Shown: positions 50,739-64,000 of the stretch, piece after piece | Numbering within the stretch: the first letter of the stretch is position 1 | Layout of the letters: every line of letters begins with the position of its first letter | NCBI GenBank assembly: GCA_963827475.1 | Contig: CAWHAZ010000004.1 | Span: 64,001-128,000 of the forward strand | Direction: 5' to 3' | Origin: an uncultured Chloroflexia bacterium | GTDB taxonomy: Bacteria; Chloroflexota; Limnocylindria; QHBO01 | Length of the DNA stretch: 64,000 nt | Made by a program: the position numbers and the translations under genes | The notes under the pieces: generated by a model | Told to the model about the DNA's origin: nothing | What the model saw: the letters and a program-made list of their open reading frames with translations, nothing else | Databases searched by the model: none

Positions 50739-51098
50739 ATGGACCAAACCGGACTGCTCTACGTCCTGGGTTTCGGCTTCGCCGCGACGACCTTCGTCTT
50801 CGGCACGATCATCTTTTCGTGGCTCGTGTCGCACCGGCGCAAGCAGGCCCAGAAGGGGCTGCCCTACGAGTGCGGGATCGACACCATCGGTGACACCTGG
50901 TCCCGCTTCGGACTGGCGTTCTACCTGTACGCCCTGCTGTTCGTCGCCTTCGACGTCGAGATCATCTTCATCTACCTGTGGGCGATCGTGATCCGCGACA
51001 TCGCGGTCAACGGGATCGTGTTGATGGGCATCTTCCTGGTGGTCCTGATGTATGGCGAGTTCTACGCCTGGAGGAAGGGGGACCTGCAGTGGCGGTAG
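50739..51098 (+). CDS. nuoA: NADH-quinone oxidoreductase subunit A
   Basis: PYECG, FYLYALLFVAFDVE and WRKGDLQW. Confidence 0.95.
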   Translation: MDQTGLLYVLGFGFAATTFVFGTIIFSWLVSHRRKQAQKGLPYECGIDTIGDTWSRFGLAFYLYALLFVAFDVEIIFIYLWAIVIRDIAVNGIVLMGIFLVVLMYGEFYAWRKGDLQWR

Positions 51099-51790
51099 AG
51101 CAGCCGAAGCGCGCCAAAGCGGCCTCGGTCGCCAAGGCGGCCGCCGACCCCAAGGACGCCCCGCCGCCGAGCACCGCGCTCGCCAAGCCGGAGGCCATCG
51201 TCATCCCCGATCCCACGGGCGACGACGACCTCCTGTCCGAGTTCGGGATGGAGGCCCACCCGCGCGGCGGCTTCCACGGCCTGCTGGAGGTCATCCCGAC
51301 CAGGGCGGACTACATCCTCGACCTGATCCGGGCCAACTCCCTGTGGCCGCTCCTGTCGGGGCTGTCGTGCTGCGCCATCGAGATGATGAGCACCGCCACC
51401 CCGATGAACGACATGGACCGCTTCGGGATGTTTCCGATGCGCGCCTCGCCGCGCCAGGCGGACGTCCTGATCGTGGCCGGCACGCTGACGACCAAGATGG
51501 CCGGCCCCCTCGTCCGGCTGTGGGCACAGATGCCCGAGCCGAAGTGGTGCGTGGCGATGGGCACCTGCACGACCAGCGGCGGGCGCTTCAAGCGCTCGTA
51601 CAGCGTGGTCCAGGGCGTGGACCGGGTCATGCCCGTCGACGTCTACGTGCCGGGCTGCCCGCCCCGCCCCGAGGGCCTGATCTACGGAATGATGAAGCTC
51701 CACGAGCTGGTCAAGCAGCGTCGCGGCCAGTGGGACACGTTCGCCGACCGCGGACCGGAGCTCCGTTCCTGGGAAGGAGACGTCCGCTGA
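51089..51790 (+). CDS. nuoB: Complex I subunit B (N2 cluster)
   Basis: LSCCAIEM, SPRQAD, MGTCTTSGG and VPGCPPRPE. Confidence 0.95.
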   Translation: MAVEQPKRAKAASVAKAAADPKDAPPPSTALAKPEAIVIPDPTGDDDLLSEFGMEAHPRGGFHGLLEVIPTRADYILDLIRANSLWPLLSGLSCCAIEMMSTATPMNDMDRFGMFPMRASPRQADVLIVAGTLTTKMAGPLVRLWAQMPEPKWCVAMGTCTTSGGRFKRSYSVVQGVDRVMPVDVYVPGCPPRPEGLIYGMMKLHELVKQRRGQWDTFADRGPELRSWEGDVR

Positions 51791-52365
51791 CCGCTCCCGC
51801 CGCGGCGGGGCCACTCGTCCGGCTGCTCGGTGACAAGCTCGGCGACGCGACGAGCCAGCTGTGGACCGATGAGGACACGGTCGAGGTCCAGGTCCCCGGC
51901 GACAAGATCGTCGAGACCCTTCGGACGCTCCGCGACGACCCCGACTTCGCGTTCTTCTTCCTGGCCGATGCGGCCGCGGTCGACTACGGGGTGGGCGAGC
52001 ACTTCGAGGTCGTCTACCACCTGCACTCCGACAGGCACCCGGTGTGGCTTCGTGTCCGCGTCCCGGTCGACCGCGAGAACCCGCTGACCCCGACCGTCAC
52101 CGGGCTGTGGGAAGGGGCGATGTTCCACGAGCGCGAGATGTACGACATGATGGGCATCGTCTTCCAGGGCAACCGGGACCTGCGCCGGATCTACATGTCG
52201 CCCGACTACCGATCCTTCCCGCAGCGGAAGGATTTCCTGCTCCCCGATGACGCCGCCGACTCCCCGGCTGCCGGCAACATGCCCCTCGAGCGCCCCGAGA
52301 CCTGGGACCTGACCCGGCTCGAGGAAGCGGCCGCCCACCGTGACGAGCCCGGGGGGCCGGTGTGA
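51787..52365 (+). CDS. nuoC: Complex I subunit C, probable CTG start
   Basis: AVDY, FEVVYHL, EREMYDMMGIVF.G, LRRI and PQRKDF; AGGAG lies 7 nt before CTG. Confidence 0.92.
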   Translation: MTAPAAAGPLVRLLGDKLGDATSQLWTDEDTVEVQVPGDKIVETLRTLRDDPDFAFFFLADAAAVDYGVGEHFEVVYHLHSDRHPVWLRVRVPVDRENPLTPTVTGLWEGAMFHEREMYDMMGIVFQGNRDLRRIYMSPDYRSFPQRKDFLLPDDAADSPAAGNMPLERPETWDLTRLEEAAAHRDEPGGPV

Positions 52366-53684
52366 CGACGACGAAGGAACCGCGGGCCCGCAAGCCCCGG
52401 GCCAAGGCTCCGCCGGAGGACGAGGCCGCTCTCCGGGCAGCCGCCGAGGGGCGGATTCCCGACCCGATCGAGCTCGACGCCACGATGACCAGCCCCGCGG
52501 GGACGCGACGCCCGGAGTTCATGGGCTTCGACATCGTCCCGCCGCCCGACCGCCCCCCGCAGACCGAGCGCGAGCGCGAGGTCTACACCCTCGGCGACGG
52601 GGAGATGCTGGTGAACATGGGCCCGCAGCACCCGTCGACCCACGGCGTGATGCGGATCGTGCTCAAGGTCCGCGGCGAGGTCGTCATCGACCTCGACCCG
52701 GTGCTCGGATACCTCCACCGCGGCATCGAGAAGCTGTGCGAGAACGCGACCTACACCACGGTCCTGACCTACGTCGACCCCATGGACTACATGTCGGCGA
52801 TGCACAACGAGCACGCGCCGGCGCTCGCCTTCGAGAAGCTGTACGGGATCAAGGCGCCGCGGCGGGCGGAGTACATCCGGGCCCTGGTGGTGGAGCTGAA
52901 CCGGGTGTTCAGCCACGGCCTGATGATGGGCTTCCTGGCCCTCGACCTCGGCGGCCTGACGCCGATCCTGTACGGGTTCATCAACCGCGACCAGGTCGTG
53001 GACATGCTGTCGGCGATCTCCGGCCAGCGGATGCTGTTCAACTTCTTCCGGGTCGGCGGGGTGAACTTCGACGTGAACGACGAGTTCCTGTCCCGCCTCG
53101 GGAAGTGGCGCGCGGGCGTGCTCGACACGATCGAGATGAACGAGAAGCTGCTCACCGAGAACGAGATCTTCGGGGCCCGGACCAAGAAGATGGGCGTGCT
53201 GACCGGCCAGCAGGCCATCGACCTGGGCGTGTCCGGCCCCAACCTGCGGGCCAGCGGCGTGCCGTTCGACGTCCGCAAGGCCCATCCGTACCCGCCCTAC
53301 CCCGAGCTCGAGTTCGAGGTCATCACCCAGGAAGGCGGCGACACCTACGCGCGGTACATCCAGCGCATCGCGGAGCTGAAGCAGAGCATCCACCTCATCG
53401 ACCAGATCGTCGACCGCATGCCCCACGGCCCGGTCCAGGCCCAGGTGCCGGGCATCATCCGGCCTAGGCCAGGGCGGGCATACGCGGCGGTGGAGTCGCC
53501 CCGGGGGCTGTACAGCGTCTACGCCATCAGCGACGGCGGCCCGAACCCGTATCGGTTCCGCATGCGCGACCCAAGCTTCATCACCCTCCAGGTCATGCCC
53601 AAGGTCATGCCGGGCCGCCTGATCGCCGACACCATGGCGGTGATGGCCAGCCTGGACCCGATCATGGGCGGCGTGGACAAGTAG
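52362..53684 (+). CDS. nuoD: Complex I subunit D
   Basis: NMGPQHPSTHGV, GYLHRGIEK, ELNR..SH, ESPRG and RMRDPSF; no Ni-binding CxxC. Confidence 0.95.
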   Translation: MTTTKEPRARKPRAKAPPEDEAALRAAAEGRIPDPIELDATMTSPAGTRRPEFMGFDIVPPPDRPPQTEREREVYTLGDGEMLVNMGPQHPSTHGVMRIVLKVRGEVVIDLDPVLGYLHRGIEKLCENATYTTVLTYVDPMDYMSAMHNEHAPALAFEKLYGIKAPRRAEYIRALVVELNRVFSHGLMMGFLALDLGGLTPILYGFINRDQVVDMLSAISGQRMLFNFFRVGGVNFDVNDEFLSRLGKWRAGVLDTIEMNEKLLTENEIFGARTKKMGVLTGQQAIDLGVSGPNLRASGVPFDVRKAHPYPPYPELEFEVITQEGGDTYARYIQRIAELKQSIHLIDQIVDRMPHGPVQAQVPGIIRPRPGRAYAAVESPRGLYSVYAISDGGPNPYRFRMRDPSFITLQVMPKVMPGRLIADTMAVMASLDPIMGGVDK

Positions 53685-53702: not shown

Positions 53703-54722
53703 ATGGACCAGGGCATGATCGACCTCATCCTTGGCATCGGCCGCTTCGTGGTCGCCACCACCCTGCTCCTGCTGCTCACGGTGCCGACCGCGTTCATCGT
53801 GATCCAGATGGAGATCAAGATCATCGCCCAGATGCAGCTGCGCTACGGCCCGAACCGGGTCGGGCCGCGGGGCATCTTCCAGAGCACGATCCACGGCTTC
53901 AAGTTCCTGGCCAAGGAGGACCAGACCCCGGATCGGGCGGACGTGCCGACGTTCACGCTGGCGCCGTGGATGGTGTTCATGGCCGCCGCCATGAGCCTGC
54001 TGGTCGTTCCCTTCGCGCCCGGCCTGGTGGCGTTCGACTCGCAGATCGGCGTCATCTACTTCTTCGCCGTCATCGGTCTGTCGGTGGTGGGGCTGCTGAT
54101 CGCCGGCTGGGCCAGCTACAACAAGTACTCGCTGCTCGGCGGGCTGCGGAGCGCGGCCCAGATGGTCAGCTATGAGATCCCGCTGACCCTGTCCATCGTG
54201 GGCGTGGTGGTCCTGACCGGGTCGCTGTCGTTCACCGAGATCGTGGAGTGGCAGCGCGAGCACGGGTGGGCGTTCCTGTGGCAGCTGGTCGGCTTCCCGA
54301 TCTTCCTCATTGCCGCCGCGGCGGAGATCAACCGCGCCCCGTTCGACATGATCGAGGCCGACAGCGAGATCGTCGCCGGCCCGTTCACCGAGTACAGCGG
54401 GATGCGGTTCGGGTTCTTCTTCTTCGCCGAGTACGTGGCCCTGTTCATCATGAGCGCCATCCTGGTCACCCTGTTCCTGGGCGGCTACCTCGCGCCGTGG
54501 CCGTTCCCCGCCACCCTCGACGGCTTCGTCGGAACCCTGTACGGCCTGTTCTGGTTCTTCGTGAAGACGTACTTCTTCGTCTTCGTCGCGGTCTGGGTGC
54601 GGGCCACCCTGCCGCGGGTCCGGGTTGACCAGCTGATGGGCGCGTCGTGGAAGGTGCTGCTCCCGCTGGCCCTCGTCAACCTGTTCCTCACGGCCATCGT
54701 CGTTCTCGCCCTCAACCTGTAA
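53703..54722 (+). CDS. nuoH: Complex I subunit H
   Basis: RYGPNRVGP, KYSLLGGLRSAAQMVSYE, EINRAPFD and EYSGMRF. Confidence 0.95.
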   Translation: MDQGMIDLILGIGRFVVATTLLLLLTVPTAFIVIQMEIKIIAQMQLRYGPNRVGPRGIFQSTIHGFKFLAKEDQTPDRADVPTFTLAPWMVFMAAAMSLLVVPFAPGLVAFDSQIGVIYFFAVIGLSVVGLLIAGWASYNKYSLLGGLRSAAQMVSYEIPLTLSIVGVVVLTGSLSFTEIVEWQREHGWAFLWQLVGFPIFLIAAAAEINRAPFDMIEADSEIVAGPFTEYSGMRFGFFFFAEYVALFIMSAILVTLFLGGYLAPWPFPATLDGFVGTLYGLFWFFVKTYFFVFVAVWVRATLPRVRVDQLMGASWKVLLPLALVNLFLTAIVVLALNL

Positions 54723-54732
54723 GGTTCGACCC

Positions 54733-55575
54733 ATGGCGATACCGGGCTCGGGCATGCTCACCGGCATGGGGGTGACCCTGCGGAACCTGTTCCGGCCCAA
54801 GGTGACGCTGCAGTACCCCGAGGAGCGGCCGCACATCCCCGACCGCTGGCGCGGGCGCCTGGACCTCATCTACGACCCGTTCGGCGAGCACAAATGCGAG
54901 GTCTGCTTCCAGTGCGCCCAGGTCTGCCCGGTCGAGGCCATCGACATGAGCGGGTTCGACAGCGAGGGCAACCGGATCCGATACGGCCTGCCGGAGATCT
55001 ACGACGAGCGGAAGGACCCCAATGCCTACCGTCGGGCCGGCCTGCCCGCTCGCCCGGAGCGCAACGCGGCCCGCTGGCAGGAGGACGTGGACAACGCCTG
55101 GGTCGACTCGGTGATCGACGGCTTCGGCGGCCGGCCCGAGTCGCTGGTCGCGATCTTCGGCGCGGTCCAGGCGAAGTACGGATACCTCCCCGAGCCGGCG
55201 TTGCGCCGGATCAGCGACCGGATGACGATCCACTGGGCCCAGGTCTTCGGCGCCGCCGGCCTGGGCGGGTTCCGGCTCCTGCCCGCCGAGGGCCACCTCG
55301 TGACCGTCTGCTCGTGCGCCGCCTGCCGCTTCGCCGGCGGGGACAGGCTCCTCGCCGCGCTCGAGGAGGAGCTCGGCATCCGGGCGGGCGAGGTGACCGA
55401 TGACGGGTCGTTCACCCTGGAGACCGATGCGAACGTGGGGTCGGGCGCGATCGCGCCGGCGGTCCGCATCGACACCCTGGTCTACGGGCCGCTCTCGGTG
55501 GACGAGGCGCGTCACCTGATCTACGCCCGCCGGGCCGAGGCAAGCCCAGCCGCCTCCGCCCCGGCCCGGGCCTGA
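54733..55575 (+). CDS. Fusion of NuoI N-terminal half and degenerate NuoE
   Basis: VTLQYPEE..RGR..CEVCFQCAQVCP (a single NuoI motif), then VQAKYGYLP..VCSCAAC..TDDGSFTL..AP (NuoE). Confidence 0.85.
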   Translation: MAIPGSGMLTGMGVTLRNLFRPKVTLQYPEERPHIPDRWRGRLDLIYDPFGEHKCEVCFQCAQVCPVEAIDMSGFDSEGNRIRYGLPEIYDERKDPNAYRRAGLPARPERNAARWQEDVDNAWVDSVIDGFGGRPESLVAIFGAVQAKYGYLPEPALRRISDRMTIHWAQVFGAAGLGGFRLLPAEGHLVTVCSCAACRFAGGDRLLAALEEELGIRAGEVTDDGSFTLETDANVGSGAIAPAVRIDTLVYGPLSVDEARHLIYARRAEASPAASAPARA

Positions 55576-56939
55576 TGGCGGTCACCCTCTCCCCCCAGAT
55601 CCGGATCCTGGACGGGGGGCAGCAACGCCTCCTGAAGGGCATCGGGACCCTGGATCCCGGGTCGCTCGCCGCGTATCGCAAGGCCGGTGGCTACAAGGGT
55701 CTGACCCGGGCGGTGACCCAGCGGTCGCCGGACGAGGTCATCGGCGAGATGGCAGCCGCGCGTCTGCGGGGACGGGGTGGCGCCGGCTTCCCGGTCGCGG
55801 ACAAGTGGCGAGCCGCCCGATCGGCACCCGGCGACCGCAAGATCGTGGTCGCCAACCTGATGGGCGCCGACCCCACGTCCCTCGGCGACCGGACGCTGGC
55901 CGAGGGCAACCCGCATCTCGTCCTCGAGGGGGCGCTGATCGCCGCTGCCGCCGTCGGCGCCAGCGAGGCGATTCTCGCCGTCCGCCGCGACTGGACGCTG
56001 GCCATCGAGCGCCTGCGCGCCGCGGTGGCGGACGCGGAAGCGGCCCACCTGGCCGGCTACCTCATCCTCGGCACGGACGTCTCGGTATCGGTATCGGTCT
56101 GGGAAGGCTCCGGTGCCTACGTCGCCGGGGAGGAGACGGCCCTCATCCACGCCCTCCAGGGTGACCGCGGCATGCCGCTCATCCGGCCGCCCTACCCGGC
56201 CGAGCGCGGCCTGTGGGACGTGCCAACGGTCATCCACAACGCCGAGACGCTCGCCCACGTGGCCTGGATCGCCGGCCACTCGGCTGCGGAGTTCACGAAG
56301 GCCGGGACCGAGGCGGCGCCGGGCACCAAGCTGGTGACCGTCGCGGGTGCGGTGACGACGCCGGGCGTGGCCGAGGTGGCGCTGGGAACATCGGTCGAGA
56401 AGGTCATCAGCCTGGCTGGAGGCTCGACGGGGACGGTCAAGGCCGCGTTCATCGGCGGCCCCGGGGCTGGCGCCCTCGCCGCCGACGAGCTGTCCGCCAC
56501 CGCCTACGCGTACGACGAGCTGGCGGAGGTCGGCGGCCACATCGGCTCGGGAACGGTGCTGGTCACCGACGCCGGCACCTGCATGGTGGCCACCGCCCGC
56601 TTCCTGCTCGACTTCTCGGCCCGCGAGGCGTGCGGCAAGGCCGTTCCCTGCCGCATCGGCACCCGCCGCCTGGTAGAGGCCCTCGACCGGATCCTGGCCG
56701 CGACCCCACGCCCCAATGACCTGGTCCTGCTCCGCGAGCTGTCGGCGAAGATCGCGGACACCGCCCTGTGCCGCCTGGAATCGCTCGCTCCGCGGCCGAT
56801 GCTCACGACCCTCGATCGGTTCGCCGACGAGTACCGCGCCCACGCCGAACGCGGGGTGTGCCTCGCCGGCTCGTGCTCGACCGATGCGGTCCTGCCGCTG
56901 CTGACCCCGCTGGCCGAAGCCGTAGGATTGGACCGATGA
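55575..56939 (+). CDS. nuoF: NuoF/HydB-like flavoprotein subunit with degenerate motifs
   Basis: LRGRGGAGFP, GAYVAGEETAL, PPYPA, NAETL, GTKL, CGKAVPCR and C-terminal H..CLAGSC. Confidence 0.82.
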   Translation: MAVTLSPQIRILDGGQQRLLKGIGTLDPGSLAAYRKAGGYKGLTRAVTQRSPDEVIGEMAAARLRGRGGAGFPVADKWRAARSAPGDRKIVVANLMGADPTSLGDRTLAEGNPHLVLEGALIAAAAVGASEAILAVRRDWTLAIERLRAAVADAEAAHLAGYLILGTDVSVSVSVWEGSGAYVAGEETALIHALQGDRGMPLIRPPYPAERGLWDVPTVIHNAETLAHVAWIAGHSAAEFTKAGTEAAPGTKLVTVAGAVTTPGVAEVALGTSVEKVISLAGGSTGTVKAAFIGGPGAGALAADELSATAYAYDELAEVGGHIGSGTVLVTDAGTCMVATARFLLDFSAREACGKAVPCRIGTRRLVEALDRILAATPRPNDLVLLRELSAKIADTALCRLESLAPRPMLTTLDRFADEYRAHAERGVCLAGSCSTDAVLPLLTPLAEAVGLDR

Positions 56940-59320
56940 CCTTCGTCGGCAACGGCAATGGCAAGGGCAACGGCAAGGGCGCCGAGCACATGGAGGACTA
57001 CGCGCCGATCTGGCCGGTCGTCCCCGGCACCCGACCGATCACGGTCACGATCAACGGCCGCCAGGTCCAGGCCGAGGAGGGGCAGACCATCCTCCAGGCC
57101 TGCCGGGTGTTGGACATCGAGATCCCGACCCTGTGCTACGAGCCGAAGCTCTCGCCCTACGGGGCCTGCCGCATCTGCGTGGTCGAGGTCGAGGGCGAGG
57201 AGAACACGCCGATCTCGTGCGGGACGAAGGTCGCGGACGGGATGGTCATCACCACCCACTCGGAGCGGGTCATCGAAAACCGCCGCCTGGTGCTGGAGCT
57301 GATCTTCTCGGACCACGACGCGTACTGCCTGCCGCCGTGCCAGTTCAAGTGCCCGACCCGGGTCGACATCCCCGGCTACCTGAAGGCCAACGCGGAGGGC
57401 AACTGGGAAGAGGCGACCCGGATCCTGAAGCGGTCCCTGCCCTTCCCGGCCATCCTCGGCCGGGTCTGCCCCGCCCCGTGCGAGACCCACTGCCGGCGCG
57501 AGGAGGTCGACATCGCGATCGCCATCCGCGACTCGCATCGCTACTGCGCCGACCGCGTGCTCGAAGTCGACGCGCCAGCCCCCCTGCCGTGGCCGAAGGA
57601 GCCGCCCACCGGGCGGCGGGTCGCGGTGGTGGGCTCCGGACCGGCCGGGATGACGGTCGCGTACTACCTCCAGCTCCGCGGCCACCAGTGCGACGTGTTC
57701 GAGGCCGACCCGGAGCAGGGCGGCATGCTGCGCTACGGAATTCCCGAGTACCGCCTGCCGAAGGCGTGGATGGACCGCGAGCTGAACCACGTCTGGGAGC
57801 TGGGCGCCACGTTCCGGCCGAACATGCGGCTCGGGCGCGACTTCCACCTCGCGGACCTGCTCGACCAGGGCTACGACGCGGTGTTCGTGGGCACGGGCTG
57901 CTACAAGTCGAACGAGCTGGGCATCCCCAACGAGTTCGCGGACGGGACGGTCAACGCCCTCGAGAACCTCTACAACAGCACCCGCGGCGTCCCCGTCCCG
58001 CAGCTGAAGGGGGCGCGAGTGGTGGTCATCGGCGGTGGGTTCACCGCCATCGACTGCACACGGACCTCGCTCCGCCAGGGCGCGGAGGCGGTCACCATCG
58101 TCTATCGCCGCGACCTGAAGGACATGCCGTCGCAGGACGAGGTCCACGAGGCGATCGAAGAGGGCGCGACGGTCATCTTCCAGGCCGCACCGGTCCGCAT
58201 CGTGACCGACGCCAAGGGTCGGGTGACCGGGGTCGAGTTCCAGAAGATGCACCTCGGCGAGCCCGACGAGAAGGGTCGCCGCCGGCCGGAGCCGATGCCC
58301 GGCACCGAGTTCATCGTCGAGTGCGACACCGTGCTGGGGGCCATCGGCCAGGGTCCGGAGCTGAGCTGGGTCGACCTCGAGCCGGACGAGATCCGCGGCG
58401 GGCTGGAGGTCAGCCGCCAGGGTCGCCTGGTCGCCGACCCGAACACCTTCCGCACCGGCGTCCCTCAGGTTTTTGCCGCCGGCGACGTGAACCTCGGCGC
58501 CACGACCGTGGTCGAGGCCATCGGTGACGGCCGCCGCGCCTCGTATGCGATGGACTACTGGCTCCGTGGCCACGACCTCGATGACCCGCAGGTCCGCCGC
58601 ATCGTGTCCGAGCCCCAGCCCTCGTTCCTGACCATCGTGCCCTTCACCGACGACGTGAAGGAGCCCCAGGCGGTGATGGGCAAGAAGGGGCCGGAGGAGC
58701 GGAGCGACAACTTCGGGGAGTACGAGTACGGCTACACCCACGACCAGGCGATGGGCGAGGCGGCCCGCTGCCTGCAGTGCACGTGCGAGGCGATCGGCCA
58801 CTGCGACCTCCGCGAGGCGGCGATCGAGTACGAGACCACGCTGAACATGGCGATCGACGAGCGGTCGATCCAGGACAACCCGTACGTCGGCATCAACCAC
58901 GGCTACGGCCGGGACGAGACCCACTCGTTCATCCTCCGCGACTACAGCCGGTGCATCGACTGCGGCCGCTGCGCCCAGGTGTGCAAGGACATCGTGGGCG
59001 CCGGCTGCTACGACTTCATCGGCAAGGGCTTCGACTCATTGGTCACCACCGCGGACTTCGTCTCGCTGAACGAGACGCCGTGCGTGTCGTGCGGTCGGTG
59101 CGCGGAGACGTGCCCGGTCGGGGCCCTCATGCCGCGGCCGCGGATCCTGGAGACCTATCAGCTCGACGTCAGCCGCTGCATCTTCTGCGGCATCTGCGCC
59201 GACGCCTGCCCGTACGACGCGCTGCGCTGCGGCCCCGAGTTCGAGTTCAGCGAGTACCAGCGCGATCTGCCGATGCTCGACATCCTCGAGATGTCCGACC
59301 GGGAGCGGCCCACCCGCTAG
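56936..59320 (+). CDS. NuoG-N/GltD-type FAD and Fe-S oxidoreductase fused to the NuoI C-terminal half
   Basis: IPTLC..GACRIC..SC (2Fe-2S); GRVCPAPCETHC, VGSGPAG, GGGFTAID, VYRR and AAGD (GltD); two ferredoxin motifs; then YQLDVSRCIFCGICADACPYDAL..EFE (NuoI). Confidence 0.88.
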   Translation: MTFVGNGNGKGNGKGAEHMEDYAPIWPVVPGTRPITVTINGRQVQAEEGQTILQACRVLDIEIPTLCYEPKLSPYGACRICVVEVEGEENTPISCGTKVADGMVITTHSERVIENRRLVLELIFSDHDAYCLPPCQFKCPTRVDIPGYLKANAEGNWEEATRILKRSLPFPAILGRVCPAPCETHCRREEVDIAIAIRDSHRYCADRVLEVDAPAPLPWPKEPPTGRRVAVVGSGPAGMTVAYYLQLRGHQCDVFEADPEQGGMLRYGIPEYRLPKAWMDRELNHVWELGATFRPNMRLGRDFHLADLLDQGYDAVFVGTGCYKSNELGIPNEFADGTVNALENLYNSTRGVPVPQLKGARVVVIGGGFTAIDCTRTSLRQGAEAVTIVYRRDLKDMPSQDEVHEAIEEGATVIFQAAPVRIVTDAKGRVTGVEFQKMHLGEPDEKGRRRPEPMPGTEFIVECDTVLGAIGQGPELSWVDLEPDEIRGGLEVSRQGRLVADPNTFRTGVPQVFAAGDVNLGATTVVEAIGDGRRASYAMDYWLRGHDLDDPQVRRIVSEPQPSFLTIVPFTDDVKEPQAVMGKKGPEERSDNFGEYEYGYTHDQAMGEAARCLQCTCEAIGHCDLREAAIEYETTLNMAIDERSIQDNPYVGINHGYGRDETHSFILRDYSRCIDCGRCAQVCKDIVGAGCYDFIGKGFDSLVTTADFVSLNETPCVSCGRCAETCPVGALMPRPRILETYQLDVSRCIFCGICADACPYDALRCGPEFEFSEYQRDLPMLDILEMSDRERPTR

Positions 59321-59766
59321 CCCGCGTCCGCGGCGCTCCGGGACGGTGTCGCGCGGTTGAACCCGAAGCGGAGGAGCCGGAACAGCAGGTAGCCGATCAG
59401 CGCGCCAACGACGTTCAGGAGGACGTCGTCCACGTCGGTCATCCGGTTCGGGATCCGCAGCTGGGCGAGCTCGATCGCGACGCTGAGCACGACCGCCACC
59501 AGCAGGACTCGGGCCCACCCGTTCATCGCCGGGAACGCGATCGGTCCGAGCAGACCGACCGGGAGCAGGAGCAGGAGGTTCCCGATCAGCTGGCCGGCCC
59601 AGAACGGGGACTCGAGGTTGTCGAGGTAGACCTGGATCGTCCGGAACAGGACGAAGTTGTCATCCACGATGAAGCCAGGCGGCGGTTCCACGGGCTGCAG
59701 GGTCATGAGCAGTCCAAGGGCCAACCACGCCGCCAGGAGCACGCCGGCGGTCACACGGGCAGTCAT
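59317..59766 (-). CDS. VanZ family membrane protein
   Basis: NFVLFRTI, GNLLLLLPVG, IELAQ and TDVDDVLLNVVG. Confidence 0.85.
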   Translation of the reverse strand: MTARVTAGVLLAAWLALGLLMTLQPVEPPPGFIVDDNFVLFRTIQVYLDNLESPFWAGQLIGNLLLLLPVGLLGPIAFPAMNGWARVLLVAVVLSVAIELAQLRIPNRMTDVDDVLLNVVGALIGYLLFRLLRFGFNRATPSRSAADAG

Positions 59767-59837
59767 CGGCCGCCCAGTCTGTCAGCCCCGGCGGTTTTCT
59801 GCCGATGCGGGGCGCCGGGCGGTATCCTCGGCGGCGC

Positions 59838-60254
59838 ATGGCCGATCTCCCCCAGCAGCCGATCGAGATGATCCTGCTCCGCCAGCTGGCGGAGCACCTC
59901 GGCATCCCGGTGTGGGTCATCGACAGCGCCGGCGACCTGGTGTTCTTCAACGAGGCCGCCGAGCCCACGCTCGGGTTGCGGGCAGATGACGTGGACCAGA
60001 TGCCGTACGAGGCGTGGACGACCGGGTTCGCGCCACGGGACCTCGCCGGCAACCCGGTTCCCGGTGAGGCGCTGCCGCCGATCAAGGCCCTGCGCGAGGG
60101 AAAGCCGCAGCACGACTCGCTCGAGATCACCGGCGCCGACGGCGTGGCCCGCCAGATCGTGATCACCGCCTTCCCGTTGACCGGCGGGCACGGGGACATC
60201 ATGGGGTCGGTCACGATGTTCTGGGAGTCGAACGGGGAGTCGGAACAGGCGTGA
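59838..60254 (+). CDS. Stand-alone PAS domain protein
   Basis: PVWVIDSAGDLVFFNEAAEPTLG and C-terminal GDIMGSVTMF strand. Confidence 0.8.
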   Translation: MADLPQQPIEMILLRQLAEHLGIPVWVIDSAGDLVFFNEAAEPTLGLRADDVDQMPYEAWTTGFAPRDLAGNPVPGEALPPIKALREGKPQHDSLEITGADGVARQIVITAFPLTGGHGDIMGSVTMFWESNGESEQA

Positions 60255-61084
60255 TCGTCCGGCTGTGGGGCACGCGAGGCTCGGTCGCGAGCGCCGGTCC
60301 CCAGACGGCCCGCTACGGCGGCAACACGGCCTGCGTCGAGGTCCGGGGCGACGACGGCTGCCTGGTCGTCCTCGACGCCGGCACCGGCATCCAGCGCCTG
60401 GGCAACGAGCTGGAGGACGACATCCATCGCATCGACATCCTGCTCACCCACCTCCACATGGACCACATCCAGGGCCTGGGTTTCTTCGCCCCGATCTTCC
60501 GCAAGGGCTGCGAGATCCACGTCTGGGGTCCCCCATCGCCGACGCTCCACCTCCGCGCCCGGGTCACCCGCTACATGTCGCCCCCGTTGTTCCCGATCCG
60601 CCTGCGCGACCTGCGGGCCAACTTCGAGTTCCATGACGCCCCGCAGGACCCGTTCACCATCGGTTCGTTGACCATCAAGGCCGACGAGGTCATCCACCCC
60701 GGCGCCACCCTCGGCTATCGGGTCAGCGAGAACGGCCGGTCACTCACCTATCTCAGCGACCACGAGCCGGCGCTGGCCGCCAACAACGGCGAGCCCGGCC
60801 CCGGCTGGATCAGCGGCCTGGCCCTTGCCCACGACGCGGACGTGCTCATCCACGATGCGCAGTACACCCAGTCCGAACGCGAGGAGCGGCTCGGCTGGGG
60901 GCACTCCTCGGTCCCGGAGGCCATCGACTTCGCCCGCACCGCGGCCGCCAAACAGCTCGTCCTGTTCCACCACGACCCCGCGCGGACCGACCACCAGATG
61001 GACCTTCTCCTTGCTGAGGCGGAGGCTCTCGCGGACGGAATGCCGGTGACGGCCGCGCGCGAGGGTGACGTGCTCGTCCTTTAG
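60251..61084 (+). CDS. MBL-fold metallohydrolase (phosphodiesterase/RNase Z-like)
   Basis: WGTRGS, YGGNTAC, LDAGTG, THLHMDHIQG, SDHE, WGHS and FHHDP. Confidence 0.88.
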   Translation: MIVRLWGTRGSVASAGPQTARYGGNTACVEVRGDDGCLVVLDAGTGIQRLGNELEDDIHRIDILLTHLHMDHIQGLGFFAPIFRKGCEIHVWGPPSPTLHLRARVTRYMSPPLFPIRLRDLRANFEFHDAPQDPFTIGSLTIKADEVIHPGATLGYRVSENGRSLTYLSDHEPALAANNGEPGPGWISGLALAHDADVLIHDAQYTQSEREERLGWGHSSVPEAIDFARTAAAKQLVLFHHDPARTDHQMDLLLAEAEALADGMPVTAAREGDVLVL

Positions 61085-61113: not shown

Positions 61114-61656
61114 GTGAGCGCTCAGCCCGAACGGAGAGTCTCGGCTCTGGACATCTCGATCGTCCTCTTCGTGGTGCTCGCCGTCGGCGTCCTCGGCGGT
61201 GGCCTGGCGGCCGTGCTCCTGCGGAACGTCATTCATTCCGCGGTGGCCATGATGTTCTGCTTCGGCGCGCTCGCCGGGACCTACGCGCTGCTTGGCGCAC
61301 CGATCGTGGCGGCGGCACAGGTCCTGATCTACCTCGGCGCGATCAGCGTCCTGATCCTGTTCGCGATCATGCTCACCCAGGCTGGCGACGCGAACCTGCC
61401 CGCCCCATTCCAGCGCCAGGCGCCGGTGGCGGCGCTGGTCGCGCTCGGGATCGTGTTCCTTGTCGGCTGGGCCATCGTCAGCACCGACTGGCCGAACGCC
61501 ACCGTCGTGATCGCGGTTGACCTCAACAAGCTGGCGACCGCCATCTTCACCGACTACGCCCTGCCCTTCGAGATCGTGGCCTTCCTGCTGCTGGCCGCGA
61601 TCATCGGCGCCATCTACCTGGCCCGACGGCCCGAAGAAGACGAGCGGGCGAACTGA
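61114..61656 (+). CDS. nuoJ: Complex I subunit J
   Basis: NVIHSA, QVLIYLGAISVLILFAIML and YALPFEI. Confidence 0.93.
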   Translation: MSAQPERRVSALDISIVLFVVLAVGVLGGGLAAVLLRNVIHSAVAMMFCFGALAGTYALLGAPIVAAAQVLIYLGAISVLILFAIMLTQAGDANLPAPFQRQAPVAALVALGIVFLVGWAIVSTDWPNATVVIAVDLNKLATAIFTDYALPFEIVAFLLLAAIIGAIYLARRPEEDERAN

Positions 61657-61659
61657 CCG

Positions 61660-61968
61660 ATGGGCCTGCCCGCGTACCTGTTCCTCTCCCTGCTCCTGTT
61701 CGGGATCGGAGCCTTTGGGTTCCTCGCCCGGCGCAACGCGATCATGATGCTGATCTGCATCGAGTTGATGCTGAACGCGGTGAACCTCGCCCTCGTCGCG
61801 TTCAACGCGTTCGACTACGGCGCGACGAATGACGCGGGCGCGGTCTTCTCCCTCCTGATCATGGCCGTCGCCGCGGCCGAGGCGACGGTGGGGCTGGCGC
61901 TGGTCATCGCCATCATCCGGACCCGTCAGACCCCCGAGGTCGACGAGTACTCCGACCTCAAGGAGTGA
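61660..61968 (+). CDS. nuoK: Complex I subunit K
   Basis: RRNAIMMLICIELMLNAVN and AAAEATVGLA. Confidence 0.95.
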   Translation: MGLPAYLFLSLLLFGIGAFGFLARRNAIMMLICIELMLNAVNLALVAFNAFDYGATNDAGAVFSLLIMAVAAAEATVGLALVIAIIRTRQTPEVDEYSDLKE

Positions 61969-61972
61969 TGCC

Positions 61973-64000
61973 CTGACACCGGAGCAGCTCATCCCACTCA
62001 TCCCGGCCCTGCCGCTCGTCGGCTTCCTGTTCGCGGTCCTCCTCGGGTCGCGTCTCGACCGCATTCCCGAGCACGGTGACCACGGGGATGGGCACGGAGC
62101 GGGGGCCGGCCACGACACCGGCGGAGACCCGCACGCGTCGCACGACGAGGCGGTGGACGAGTCCGCGTTCCGCACGATCCCGACCGAGGAGGAACAGCGC
62201 GAGACCTCGCCCCACCGGGGCCACGCCGACGACCTGGCCAACGCCAACGGGGCAGATGGGGTCATCCCGGACGAGCTGAACGACGGACGGGGCCAGCCCG
62301 GCCACGTCTCCCCGGGCGGGCCGCGACCGGTCTACCGCTCGTGGTGGGTCCCCGTGGCCCTTGTCGCGCTCATGTGGGCCGCGGCCATGGTCGTGTTCGG
62401 ATCGGTCATCTTCGACGGTGCCGAGTACCGGGTCACCGTCTACGAGTGGATCGTGTCCGGCGACTTCCGGGTCGAGATCACGTTCTTCGTCGACGCGCTC
62501 ACCGCGGTCCTGCTCCTGGTCGTCAGCACGGTCGGCCTCCTCGTCCACGTCTACTCCATCGGCTACATGGACGGCGACCGGAGCGTGTGGCGCTTCTTCG
62601 CCTACCTGAACCTGTTCATGTTCAGCATGCTGCTGCTGATCCTGGCCGACAATTTCCTGCTGCTGTACGTCGGCTGGGAAGCGGTGGGCCTGTGCTCGTA
62701 CCTGCTCATCGGCTACTGGTACAAGAAGCCCTCGGCCGCCGGGGCCGCCAAGAAGGCGTTCATCGTCAACCGGGTTGGCGACTTCGGATTCGGGCTCGGC
62801 GTGATCCTGATCTGGACGTTGCTCGGCACCCTCGCGTTCGAGGAGGTGTTCGCCGGTGTCGGCGGGCTGGAGGAGTGGCAGGTCACGCTCATCGCGCTGC
62901 TCCTGTTCGCGGGCGCGGTCGGCAAGTCCGCCCAGTTCCCGCTCCACGTCTGGCTTCCCGACGCGATGGAGGGGCCGACCCCGGTCAGCGCCCTGATCCA
63001 CGCCGCGACGATGGTCAACGCCGGCGTCTACCTGGTGGCGCGCTCGAACCCGATCTTCGCCGAGGCCCCGACCGCCATGGCGGTGGTCGCGGCCATCGGT
63101 GTCTTCACCGCCGTCCTGGCCGCGGCCATCGCGCTGACTCAGAACGACATCAAGAAGGTCCTCGCCTACTCGACCGTGAGCCAGCTGGCATACATGTTCT
63201 TCGGGCTGGGCATCGGGGCGTGGGTGGCGGCCATCTTCCACCTGCTGGCCCATGGCTTCTTCAAGGGCCTGCTGTTCATGGCGTCGGGATCGGTCATCCA
63301 TGGCGCCGGCGGCGAGCAGGACATGCAGCTCATGGGCGGGCTGCGGGAAAAGATGCGCTGGACCTACGTGACCATGGTCATCGGGTCGCTGGCCCTGGCC
63401 GGCATCCCGATCTTTGCCGGGTTCTTCAGCAAGGACGAGATCCTGTCGGAGGCGTTCCTGCGCGGCTACGGGGTCTACTGGCTGATCGGGATCGTCGTCG
63501 CGTTCATGACCGCGTTCTACACGTTCCGGATGATCTACCTCACCTTCCACCGATCCTGGCGCGGCCCGGCCGAGGCGTGGCACCACGTCCACGAGAGCGG
63601 ATGGACGATGGTCGTCCCGCTGGTCATCCTGGCCGTGCCCACCGCCCTGGCCGGCCTCCTGCTCGGCATTCCGCCCGAGAGTGGGGCCATCCACACCTGG
63701 CTCGAGGAGGTCTTCGCCGGAGCCGAGGCACTGGGAACGGGCATCCTCCCCGGCTCTATCGCCGCCGAGGCGCTCGAGCATGGTGAAGCCCACGCATTCG
63801 AGCTCTTCGGGCTCGGCGGCCTGCTGCTCCTCGTCGGCGCGGGCATGGGGGTCGGCGGCATCCTGCTCGCCCGCCGCTGGTACGTCCAGAACCCGGAGGC
63901 ACCGGTCCGCTTCGTCGAGCGCATCCCGTTCGGCCTGGGGCCGGGCATGTACCGCGCCAGCGTGAACAAGTACTACTTCGACGACCTGTACCAGCTCCTG
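61973..64000 (+). CDS. nuoL: Complex I subunit L, runs off the window; CTG start or an indel after ATG at 61968
   Basis: Frame missing from the ORF track, translated by hand: HVYSIGYM, GWEAVGLCSYLLIG, KAFIVNRVGD, KSAQFPLHVWLPDAMEGPTPVSALIHAATMV. Confidence 0.93.
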   Translation, partial: MTPEQLIPLIPALPLVGFLFAVLLGSRLDRIPEHGDHGDGHGAGAGHDTGGDPHASHDEAVDESAFRTIPTEEEQRETSPHRGHADDLANANGADGVIPDELNDGRGQPGHVSPGGPRPVYRSWWVPVALVALMWAAAMVVFGSVIFDGAEYRVTVYEWIVSGDFRVEITFFVDALTAVLLLVVSTVGLLVHVYSIGYMDGDRSVWRFFAYLNLFMFSMLLLILADNFLLLYVGWEAVGLCSYLLIGYWYKKPSAAGAAKKAFIVNRVGDFGFGLGVILIWTLLGTLAFEEVFAGVGGLEEWQVTLIALLLFAGAVGKSAQFPLHVWLPDAMEGPTPVSALIHAATMVNAGVYLVARSNPIFAEAPTAMAVVAAIGVFTAVLAAAIALTQNDIKKVLAYSTVSQLAYMFFGLGIGAWVAAIFHLLAHGFFKGLLFMASGSVIHGAGGEQDMQLMGGLREKMRWTYVTMVIGSLALAGIPIFAGFFSKDEILSEAFLRGYGVYWLIGIVVAFMTAFYTFRMIYLTFHRSWRGPAEAWHHVHESGWTMVVPLVILAVPTALAGLLLGIPPESGAIHTWLEEVFAGAEALGTGILPGSIAAEALEHGEAHAFELFGLGGLLLLVGAGMGVGGILLARRWYVQNPEAPVRFVERIPFGLGPGMYRASVNKYYFDDLYQLL

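Follow-up and report, generated by a model that had tools for sequence, protein, structure and literature searches.

We analysed a stretch of 64,000 nucleotides (the window, whose positions serve as coordinates throughout) from an uncultured Chloroflexia bacterium of the class Limnocylindria (assembly GCA_963827475.1, contig CAWHAZ010000004.1, positions 64,001 to 128,000). The genome is a metagenome-assembled genome (MAG) of 1.92 Mb in 7 contigs and is 90% complete. Between 50.7 and 64 kb, the plus strand carries a nuo operon for respiratory complex I in the order nuoA, B, C, D, H, three unusual genes, three unrelated genes, nuoJ, K and L, with nuoM and nuoN directly downstream of the window. 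Based on Pfam and a search of the genome, the complex I core (A, B, C, D, H, J, K, L, M and N) is complete and ordinary. The three unusual genes encode a fusion protein of 280 amino acids (aa), a 454-aa NuoF-like protein and the 794-aa product of the open reading frame (ORF) on which we focus here (Table 1). They are translationally coupled, the first two overlapping by 1 base at 55575 and the ATG of the third at 56936 overlapping the preceding stop at 56939 by 4 nt. Together they form a three-gene module of the Nfn/Stn type that lies inside nuoI of an otherwise complete nuo operon.

Domains were assigned with Pfam on the ORFs of the window and with the profiles TIGR01971 for NuoI (121 positions) and TIGR01973 for NuoG (606 positions). 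In the 794-aa ORF, Pfam recognised Fer2_4 (residues 33–109), Pyr_redox_2 (228–532) and three Fer4 motifs (666–764). Fer4_20 matches residues 132–210, entering at position 29 of 113 of that profile, and the first 17 of the 40 positions of NADH-G_4Fe-4S_3 match residues 116–132 with 21.6 bits, which is under the 27-bit cut-off. No molybdopterin family occurs among the 21 Pfam families listed. The NuoG profile matches in two pieces of the same open frame, positions 1–95 at 57044–57328 and positions 97–203 at 58781–59143, about 1.45 kb downstream. Since TIGR01973 stops at 95 and resumes in frame at 97, a GltD-like domain splits the NuoG-type head at the N5 motif. The 2Fe-2S cysteines of the head (residues 66–95, 57131–57220) are followed by SDHDAYC at 57308–57328, and further along lie GSGPAG (57632–57649), GGGFTA (58031–58048), YRR (58103–58111) and EAARCLQCTCEAIGHCDL (58757–58810). 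The insert has the hallmarks of GltD/NfnB flavoproteins, namely the GxGxxG motif for flavin adenine dinucleotide (FAD), GxGxx(A/T/S) followed by YRR, and two 4Fe-4S sites; the GxGxx(A/T/S)...YRR motif sets a preference for NADPH.

To describe conservation we drew on 41 related genomes, which represent five families of the class and include the unpublished G016 and G021, and scored ligands in an alignment of 25 large subunits. All cluster ligands are invariant (C67, C78, C81, C95, H127 and C131 among them), as are the FAD motif, H201, R273 and all eight cysteines of the ferredoxin domain. Motif counts refer to 94 loci, with denominators that differ by the orthologues covering each motif; YRR is kept in 94 of 94, within the motif GGGFT(A/T/S)...YRR. 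The ORF is full-length in every one of the 41 related genomes which, together with the invariant ligands, argues that its architecture is not due to chance. In the alignment, H201 (57536–57538) takes the position of K170, the Lys ligand of the FAD-adjacent cluster in NfnA/StnC, and it is His in 25 of 25 sequences. The original prediction for this locus had listed the N1b 2Fe-2S motif, SDHDAYC, C..HCDL, GxGxxG, GGGxTA, YRR and a permuted EAARCLQC, all of which are where it placed them. It had also proposed that a GltD domain is inserted in the N5-type motif of a NuoG-type protein and that the large molybdopterin-fold domain is absent, as the break in TIGR01973 and the Pfam families listed bear out. 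It had missed the C-terminal half of NuoI in this ORF, the N-terminal half fused to NuoE two genes upstream, and the degeneration of the NuoE- and NuoF-like partners.

The two halves of NuoI are on different proteins. Positions 1–72 of the 121 of TIGR01971 match residues 11–83 of the 280-aa fusion, and positions 71–112 match residues 736–777 of the 794-aa ORF, whose last 60 or so residues are the C-terminal half of NuoI. In a relative from the class that has a canonical operon as well, residues 79–145 of the intact NuoI are 54% identical to residues 11–77 of the fusion, and its residues 156–192 align with residues 736–772 of the ORF. The chain is broken in the loop that joins the two cluster motifs, leaving one CxxCxxCxxxCP motif per half; the N-terminal motif is kept in 82 of 82 covered orthologues and the C-terminal one in 83 of 83. 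In the NuoI fold, the other motif supplies the fourth ligand of each cluster. As each cluster thus draws ligands from both motifs, the two fusion proteins would have to pair for N6a and N6b to form. A complex prediction with the two NuoI halves and four clusters scored 0.43, versus 0.01 for the best of three controls, with at least 81% of contacts common between runs and a pLDDT (predicted local distance difference test) of the partners of at least 62; the score mark applied is reached by 58 of 80 solved complexes and by 2 of 110 mismatches. We also considered motifs 2 (716–727) and 3 (748–759) of the ORF as a self-contained NuoI-like ferredoxin, given that BLASTP aligns residues 716–772 across both motifs of intact NuoI. 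This was rejected because motifs 1 and 2 align with the pair in NfnA/StnC, and because motif 1 and the upstream N-terminal half of NuoI would be left unpaired.

Both partners of the large subunit are degenerate. Residues 125–263 of the 280-aa fusion match 2Fe-2S_thioredx, and this NuoE-like domain is missing the N1a ligands: 0 of the 75 orthologues covered have the second Cys pair, with NVGSGA in its place here, and the domain is truncated in one family of the class. The NuoF-like protein is without the N- and C-terminal Fe-S domains of Bfu proteins, aligns to residues 105–527 of the 584-aa NfnB, and scores 319 bits against the NuoF profile, below the 559-bit cut-off. Its N3 motif, here CGKAVPC at 56631–56651, is an intact CxxCxxC in only 7 of 88 orthologues. 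The second Cys is A or T in 81 of 88, all 88 retain the fourth, and the resulting CxxAxxC...C pattern resembles 3Fe-4S sites. The loop for NAD, NADE(G/S)(D/E)PG, is replaced in every member by NLMGADP, NAYQADP or NAYDADP, and the loop for flavin mononucleotide (FMN) is variable (RGHGGGGFL and RGRGTGGLP in the class, RGRGGAGRL in Ktedonobacteria). The canonical operon of the class relative retains RGRGGAGFP, NADESEPGTF, CGKCVPC and the CxxxC of NuoE. None of the three proteins corresponds to a canonical NuoE (with N1a), NuoF (with NADH, FMN and N3 sites) or NuoG (with a molybdopterin-fold domain), the NuoG profile being matched only at positions 1–203 of 606.

By sequence, the three proteins are closest to NfnCBA and StnABC, not to canonical NuoEFG. 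Among solved chains, residues 33–758 of the 794-aa ORF align best with NfnA of the Caldicellulosiruptor NfnABC complex (9bov_A, 566 bits); StnC of Sporomusa ovata (8oh5_C) gives 497 bits and an archaeal NfnA (9n5u_A) 471 bits. NuoG-type chains align only with residues 34–135. The NuoF-like protein scores 384 bits with NfnB (9bov_B) and 380 bits with StnB (8oh5_B) versus 251 bits with Nqo1 of Thermus, and the best matches of the NuoE-like part are NfnC (9bov_C), HydC and StnA. The best 150 matches of a search of a representative library are mostly NfnA/StnC-like proteins of 1000–1400 aa or fragments. Nine library proteins of about 800–900 aa were read individually, of which one (P0156) carries a NuoI half, two have other C-termini and six end at a contig edge inside a molybdopterin-type domain. 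Considered as a member of the Bfu type, the module has a large subunit of the expected kind, while the full BfuB domain set and the [2Fe-2S] cluster C1 of BfuC are absent.

The module is the only one of its kind in the genome. The NuoI profile gave 6 matches there, 0 of them over the cut-off, and the two best are the split halves. NuoF-like, NuoG-like and NuoH genes occur once each, and the three Proton_antipo_M matches (C4:126645, 128612 and 130149) are exactly L, M and N. No intact NuoI and no other NuoF, NuoG or NuoH was found in this 90% complete genome, nor was a type II NADH dehydrogenase (NDH-2) recognised among its six long Pyr_redox_2 proteins above the cut-off. These are two lipoamide dehydrogenase-like and two thioredoxin-reductase-like proteins, the 794-aa ORF and a second GltD-like protein. 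The check that the original prediction had named, for a second canonical nuoEFG or an NDH-2, therefore came back empty within the same completeness. The second GltD-like protein (G000:C4:30.7–32.7 kb, equivalent to L128:1199–3172, minus strand) has 657 aa, is PRK12771-like (411 bits) and ends in a ferredoxin-type stretch. It is about 41% identical to the GltD domain of the ORF and has counterparts in 25 of the 41 related genomes, all in its own family. A gene for PntB, the beta subunit of the proton-translocating transhydrogenase, is found at G000:C7:104195–105562 (610 bits), so NADH and NADPH could be interconverted independently of the complex I variant.

The arrangement is conserved beyond this genome. 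In the following, I(N)::E denotes the 280-aa type of fusion and G* the large subunit, written G*::I(C) where its NuoI half is to be shown. Three families of the class have the order A-B-C-D-H-[I(N)::E]-F-[G*::I(C)]-J-(K)-L-M-N. In a fourth, B-D-[I(N)::E]-F-G* are at one locus and A-C-H-J-L-M-N at another; intact NuoI is absent in 4 of the 5 genomes of this family, and the fifth has an extra, normal 14-gene operon. At one such locus (L109:6862–8217, minus strand, class family f2) a Methyltransf_28 (PF02636) gene follows the B-D-[I(N)::E]-F-G* cluster; NDUFAF7, an assembly factor of mitochondrial complex I, presumably belongs to the same family. We then sampled 301 Chloroflexota genomes with the C-terminal 96 residues of the ORF as the query, and the split form, matched from residue 1 of the query, was present in 64. 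Four unpublished genomes were part of this sample and gave short NuoI-type hits only. All 33 sampled genomes of the class matched, as did 31 outside it, 30 of them in open frames of about 710–950 aa and one in a short frame. Six loci outside the class have nuoB-[I(N)::E]-F-G* or a full operon, and genome G163 is alike. The protein of one of these loci is WP_052888283.1 from the cultured Thermogemmatispora carboxidivorans; others are from Ktedonobacterales MAGs. T. carboxidivorans and Thermogemmatispora sp. T81 have a canonical set in addition to the split-type one. Contigs (loci L024, L071, L078 and L082) with ORF copies 84–95% identical to ours are titled Pleomorphomonadaceae, Zixiibacteriota, Steroidobacteraceae or Binatia, and are probably mis-binned or mislabelled Limnocylindria.

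We built a quick maximum-likelihood tree of 20 split-type sequences and 28 long NfnA/StnC-like sequences, the latter being every fourth representative of at least 1000 aa, cut at residue 760. Columns less than 60% filled were dropped, which removed the NuoI half from the data. The 20 split-type sequences fall on one side of a branch with a Shimodaira–Hasegawa-like approximate likelihood ratio (SH-aLRT) support of 100, and the split form is a single clade in this tree.

Table 1. Features of the nuo locus in window coordinates.
Feature	Position	Strand	Basis and remarks
nuoA	50739..51098	+	Pfam Oxidored_q4, E 9.8e-32
nuoB	51098..51790	+	Pfam Oxidored_q6, E 5.5e-28; start uncertain, frame open from 50978
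nuoC	51790..52365	+	Pfam Complex1_30kDa, E 1.3e-36; start uncertain
nuoD	52362..53684	+	Pfam Complex1_49kDa, E 1.7e-81
nuoH	53703..54722	+	Pfam NADHdh, E 4.2e-111; single match in own genome
Fusion protein, 280 aa: NuoI N-terminal half and NuoE-like domain without second Cys pair	54733..55575	+	TIGR01971, 2Fe-2S_thioredx
NuoI N-terminal half, including CEVCFQCAQVCP (54895-54930)	54763..54981	+	TIGR01971; BLASTP to intact NuoI
NuoF/BfuB-like subunit, 454 aa, N3 motif CGKAVPC, NAD loop NLMGADPTSLGDR	55575..56939	+	Pfam Complex1_51K, SLBB and NADH_4Fe-4S only
NfnA/StnC-like subunit ending in NuoI C-terminal half, 794 aa	56936..59320	+	Pfam, profile and structure-chain matches
NuoG-type 2Fe-2S domain and H127...C131 start of His-ligated cluster motif	57032..57328	+	Fer2_4; NuoG profile; invariant ligands
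Inserted GltD/NfnB-like domain: two 4Fe-4S sites, FAD, GGGFTA...YRR NADPH site, closing CLQCTCEAIGHC	57326..58810	+	Fer4_20, Pyr_redox_2
2x[4Fe-4S] ferredoxin-like domain, CIDCGRCAQVC and CVSCGRCAETCP	58922..59116	+	Fer4_Nqo3 (residues 666-731), Fer4_7 (716-762)
NuoI C-terminal half, CIFCGICADACP...EFEFSEY	59141..59266	+	TIGR01971 (residues 736-777)
nuoJ	61114..61656	+	Pfam Oxidored_q3, E 8.6e-34
nuoK	61660..61968	+	Pfam Oxidored_q2, E 1.2e-25
nuoL	62153..64000, extends past window end	+	Proton_antipo_M match

The soluble relatives suggest how such a module might work. According to PMC11829005 and PMC10482914, electrons in NfnA follow the path FAD-A7-A6-A3-A2-A1 and then B1-FMN, with A2-A4-A5 as a dead-end branch, and in StnC the path FAD-C7-C6-C5-C4-C3-B1-FMN, with C1 and C2 as a remnant. 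The minimal bifurcation site is the [B1-FMN-C1] flavobicluster, in which C1 is the [2Fe-2S] cluster of BfuC (PMC11829005). Electron bifurcation was rejected for the module studied here, because [B1-FMN-C1] cannot form: the NuoE-like 2Fe-2S cluster is gone, the ferredoxin-binding domains are absent, and there are usually three N3 cysteines.

We propose that a soluble NADPH transhydrogenase operon of the Nfn/Stn (Bfu) type, in the order NfnC-NfnB-NfnA, came to lie inside nuoI. The 5' half of nuoI would have fused to the NfnC/NuoE-like gene, and the 3' half to the NfnA-like gene after loss of its formate-dehydrogenase-like domain, and the paired NuoI halves would anchor the module on NuoB, NuoD and NuoH. 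Based on the alignment, C139, C178, C182 and H201 may form the cluster adjoining the FAD, H127 may help to ligate the His-ligated N5-type cluster, and C131, C135 and C186 may complete the N5-type and the second GltD-type clusters jointly with the four cysteines of CLQCTC...C. The two ferredoxin motifs would be the counterparts of A2 and A4 of NfnA. The A4-type motif ends 21 residues ahead of the motif of the NuoI C-terminal half, and with this spacing, the branch that the soluble enzymes leave unused would be the obvious way for electrons to reach N6a/N6b, N2 and quinone. The putative path is thus from NADPH to FAD, the two GltD-type clusters, the His-ligated cluster, the two ferredoxin-type clusters, N6a/N6b, N2 and quinone. 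Protons would be pumped by the normal membrane arm, and the NuoF-like subunit would serve at least as a scaffold.

Starting from the architecture of the module, its conservation and its being the sole copy, all of which are direct observations, we consider it probable that the 794-aa ORF encodes the large subunit of the electron-input module of the organism's only complex I, and that this complex is a non-bifurcating NAD(P)H:quinone enzyme most likely fed by NADPH. The idea of the original prediction that the proton-pumping arm is connected to a normally soluble module of the Stn/Nfn type is supported by the kinship with NfnCBA/StnABC, by the location in a split nuoI, and by the results for NuoI, NuoF, NuoG, NuoH and NDH-2 in the genome search. 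A more specific version can be offered only tentatively. It holds that the operon was inserted in the loop of nuoI, that the GltD-type FAD is the sole working entry of a proton-pumping NADPH:quinone enzyme with the E- and F-like proteins as scaffold, that the dead-end branch of Nfn/Stn has become the main path, and that the enzyme is the sole respiratory NAD(P)H dehydrogenase of Limnocylindria.

A number of points weigh against an NADPH-fed complex I of this kind. With the MAG at 90% completeness, a canonical nuoEFG or an NDH-2 may have been missed. Each of the 5 examined genomes from outside the class has an intact NuoI next to a NuoH, and another NuoH at a separate place; the split form is an additional isozyme in these genomes, perhaps with a specialised role. 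NADPH as the donor is suggested by the motif GGGFT(A/T/S)...YRR and by homology to the NADPH-binding StnC and NfnA, and the distant split-type protein P0156 is without YRR. The hand-over from a ferredoxin-type cluster to N6a is a proposal from the alignment. An AlphaFold2 model of the whole ORF, built on a 25-row alignment, has a mean pLDDT of 61.7, with residues 560–794 below 50, and the predicted pairing of the NuoI halves lends weak support; the NuoI fold is solved, so the pass may reflect likeness to known structures. Contigs of at least 95% identity from four rhizosphere metatranscriptome runs of one study span nuoH to the 794-aa ORF and run across the junctions H/I(N)::E, I(N)::E/F and F/G*, which is presence in RNA libraries and not proof of transcription. 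Finally, the NuoF-like subunit of this genome retains RGRGGAGFP, GEETAL and three N3 cysteines, and with these motifs and the invariant 2Fe-2S cluster that leads to it, NADH could still enter there.

This last point leads to the rival that we take most seriously, a lesser but real possibility, in which the enzyme has a dual input: the FMN site of the NuoF-like subunit would oxidise NADH and the GltD-like FAD site NADPH, with a common chain to quinone that drains both pools. GAYVAGEETAL and NAET survive in the NuoF-like subunit of this genome along with RGRGGAGFP, the 2Fe-2S cluster linking the chain to this subunit is invariant, and the universal fourth N3 Cys, in a pattern presumably like that of 3Fe-4S sites, means that a cluster may remain. 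However, the NAD(H) loop is replaced in all members, Arg or Val takes the place of the adenine-stacking Phe in GAGFP in 3 of the 4 covered Ktedonobacterial copies, and the FMN loop differs even within one family (RGHGGGGFL, RGRGTGGLP). The F-like and I(N)::E proteins are also only 41–45% and 38–47% identical between families of the class, compared to 57–60% for the large subunit. It is also conceivable, if rather improbable, that the GltD-like site itself uses NADH, which would make this an ordinary NADH:quinone complex I whose flavoprotein has been exchanged. Some proteins of the GltD family are reportedly NADH users, but GGGFT(A/T/S)...YRR is found in all 94 loci and aligns with StnC and both NfnA proteins. 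The StnC structure has NADPH bound (PMC10482914).

Two further explanations concern the direction and the place of the reaction. Electrons could run in reverse, with the proton-motive force driving them from quinol to NADP+ for biosynthetic NADPH, or NADH oxidation could be partly coupled to NADP+ reduction. Complex I is reversible, the Nfn/Stn parents are bidirectional (PMC10482914) and the module holds two nucleotide-type sites; yet no other quinone-reducing NAD(P)H dehydrogenase was recognised in the genome and PntB is available for NADPH supply, and we regard such a role as unlikely. That the three genes encode a soluble Nfn-like transhydrogenase merely located in the nuo operon, as their homology to soluble NfnABC and Stn might suggest, seems highly improbable. 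The only NuoI sequence of the genome is divided between two of the three proteins, and NuoB and NuoD would otherwise be without N6a and N6b. Moreover, the ferredoxin-binding domains and the NuoE-type cluster that the Nfn reaction requires are missing.

The remaining subunits encoded in the window are unexceptional. The nuoB translation has a CC...C...CP pattern, which we take to be that of an N2-type NuoB, and 51098–51370 encodes an extension rich in Ala, Pro and Lys ahead of the NuoB domain, which begins at about residue 91 of the translated stretch. The C-terminus of NuoD has zero cysteines, which presumably marks the quinone type and not the NiFe-hydrogenase type. The three unrelated genes between the 794-aa ORF and nuoJ (59317–61084) encode a VanZ-like protein (59317–59766, minus strand), a small PAS protein (59805–60254) and a metallo-beta-lactamase-fold protein (60251–61084). 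In other families of the class, nuoJ starts within about 300 nt of the large-subunit gene. The RNA-library contigs cover the flanks and almost nothing of 59453–60202, in the VanZ and PAS genes, and the insert may be absent from related strains.

Known forms of complex I are NADH enzymes or ferredoxin and F420 variants, and a form fed by NADPH, if confirmed, would change models of redox balance and energy yield: this soil bacterium could burn NADPH directly for energy via its only respiratory complex I. A core Fe-S subunit cut in halves that tether a foreign module is also an unusual build for a respiratory complex. Limnocylindria (formerly Ellin6529) are among the dominant uncultivated soil lineages of Chloroflexi (PMC6776052), and the orthologue in the cultured Thermogemmatispora carboxidivorans makes the split-type complex testable. 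Spero et al. (2015; PMC4453560) described many Chloroflexi with 13 of 14 complex I genes and only NuoG missing, which were scored as lacking complex I, and the split-NuoI architecture may explain such cases. For Thermomicrobium roseum, nuoA-E and H-N are listed by Islam et al. (2019). Our literature search, which did not extend to subscription journals or supplements, turned up no account of either a split NuoI or a GltD-bearing protein substituting for NuoG in Chloroflexota.

Compared with canonical complex I (Nqo1, 2, 3 and 9 of Thermus), the module occupies the same operon slot between nuoD/H and nuoJ, is homologous in its 2Fe-2S head, His-Cys motif, NuoF fold and NuoI motifs, and accompanies ordinary NuoA-D, H and J-N. 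In contrast to the canonical enzyme, there is no molybdopterin-fold domain, there are no N1a ligands, NuoI consists of two polypeptides, an extra FAD/NADPH domain brings two clusters, and the donor to N6a is likely a cluster other than N5. With NfnABC and StnABC (PDB 9BOV, 8OH5 and 9N5U) the module shares the gene order (NuoE-like, NuoF-like, large subunit), the 2Fe-2S head, the GltD/NfnL insert at the His-ligated cluster with its closing CxxCxC...C, the 2x[4Fe-4S] domain and the FAD and NADPH motifs, R273 corresponding to R239 of StnC. It differs from them in that half of NuoI replaces their FdhF-like C-terminal half of about 450 residues, the B-type subunit has lost the domain at its N-terminus and the B3/B4 ferredoxin domain at its C-terminus, and the C-type subunit is without the 2Fe-2S cluster and is fused to the other NuoI half. 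In addition, the Lys ligand near the FAD is an invariant His (H201), and the module is embedded in a nuo operon.

Two other systems are related in design. Nuo-Bfu has a full bifurcating BfuBC core, a BfuB with ferredoxin-type domains and no Nfn-like domain. It was predicted for Deferribacteres, Proteobacteria, Planctomycetes and Nitrospirae by Schut et al. (2022; PMC9304861), whose text makes no mention of NuoI. There, as here, a Bfu-derived ABC module in the middle of a nuo operon replaces NuoEFG; the core is degenerate in our case, lacking what defines a bifurcating BfuBC, and an NADPH domain is added. In Mbx-like operons, a GltD-related flavoprotein substitutes for NuoI (Degli Esposti, 2015; PMC4758237), and both systems thus place a GltD-type NAD(P)H flavoprotein on a complex-I-like membrane module. 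However, that module is of the Mbx/Mrp type, whereas the one described here is bona fide Nuo, retains NuoI in split form and carries the GltD domain within an NfnA-type subunit.

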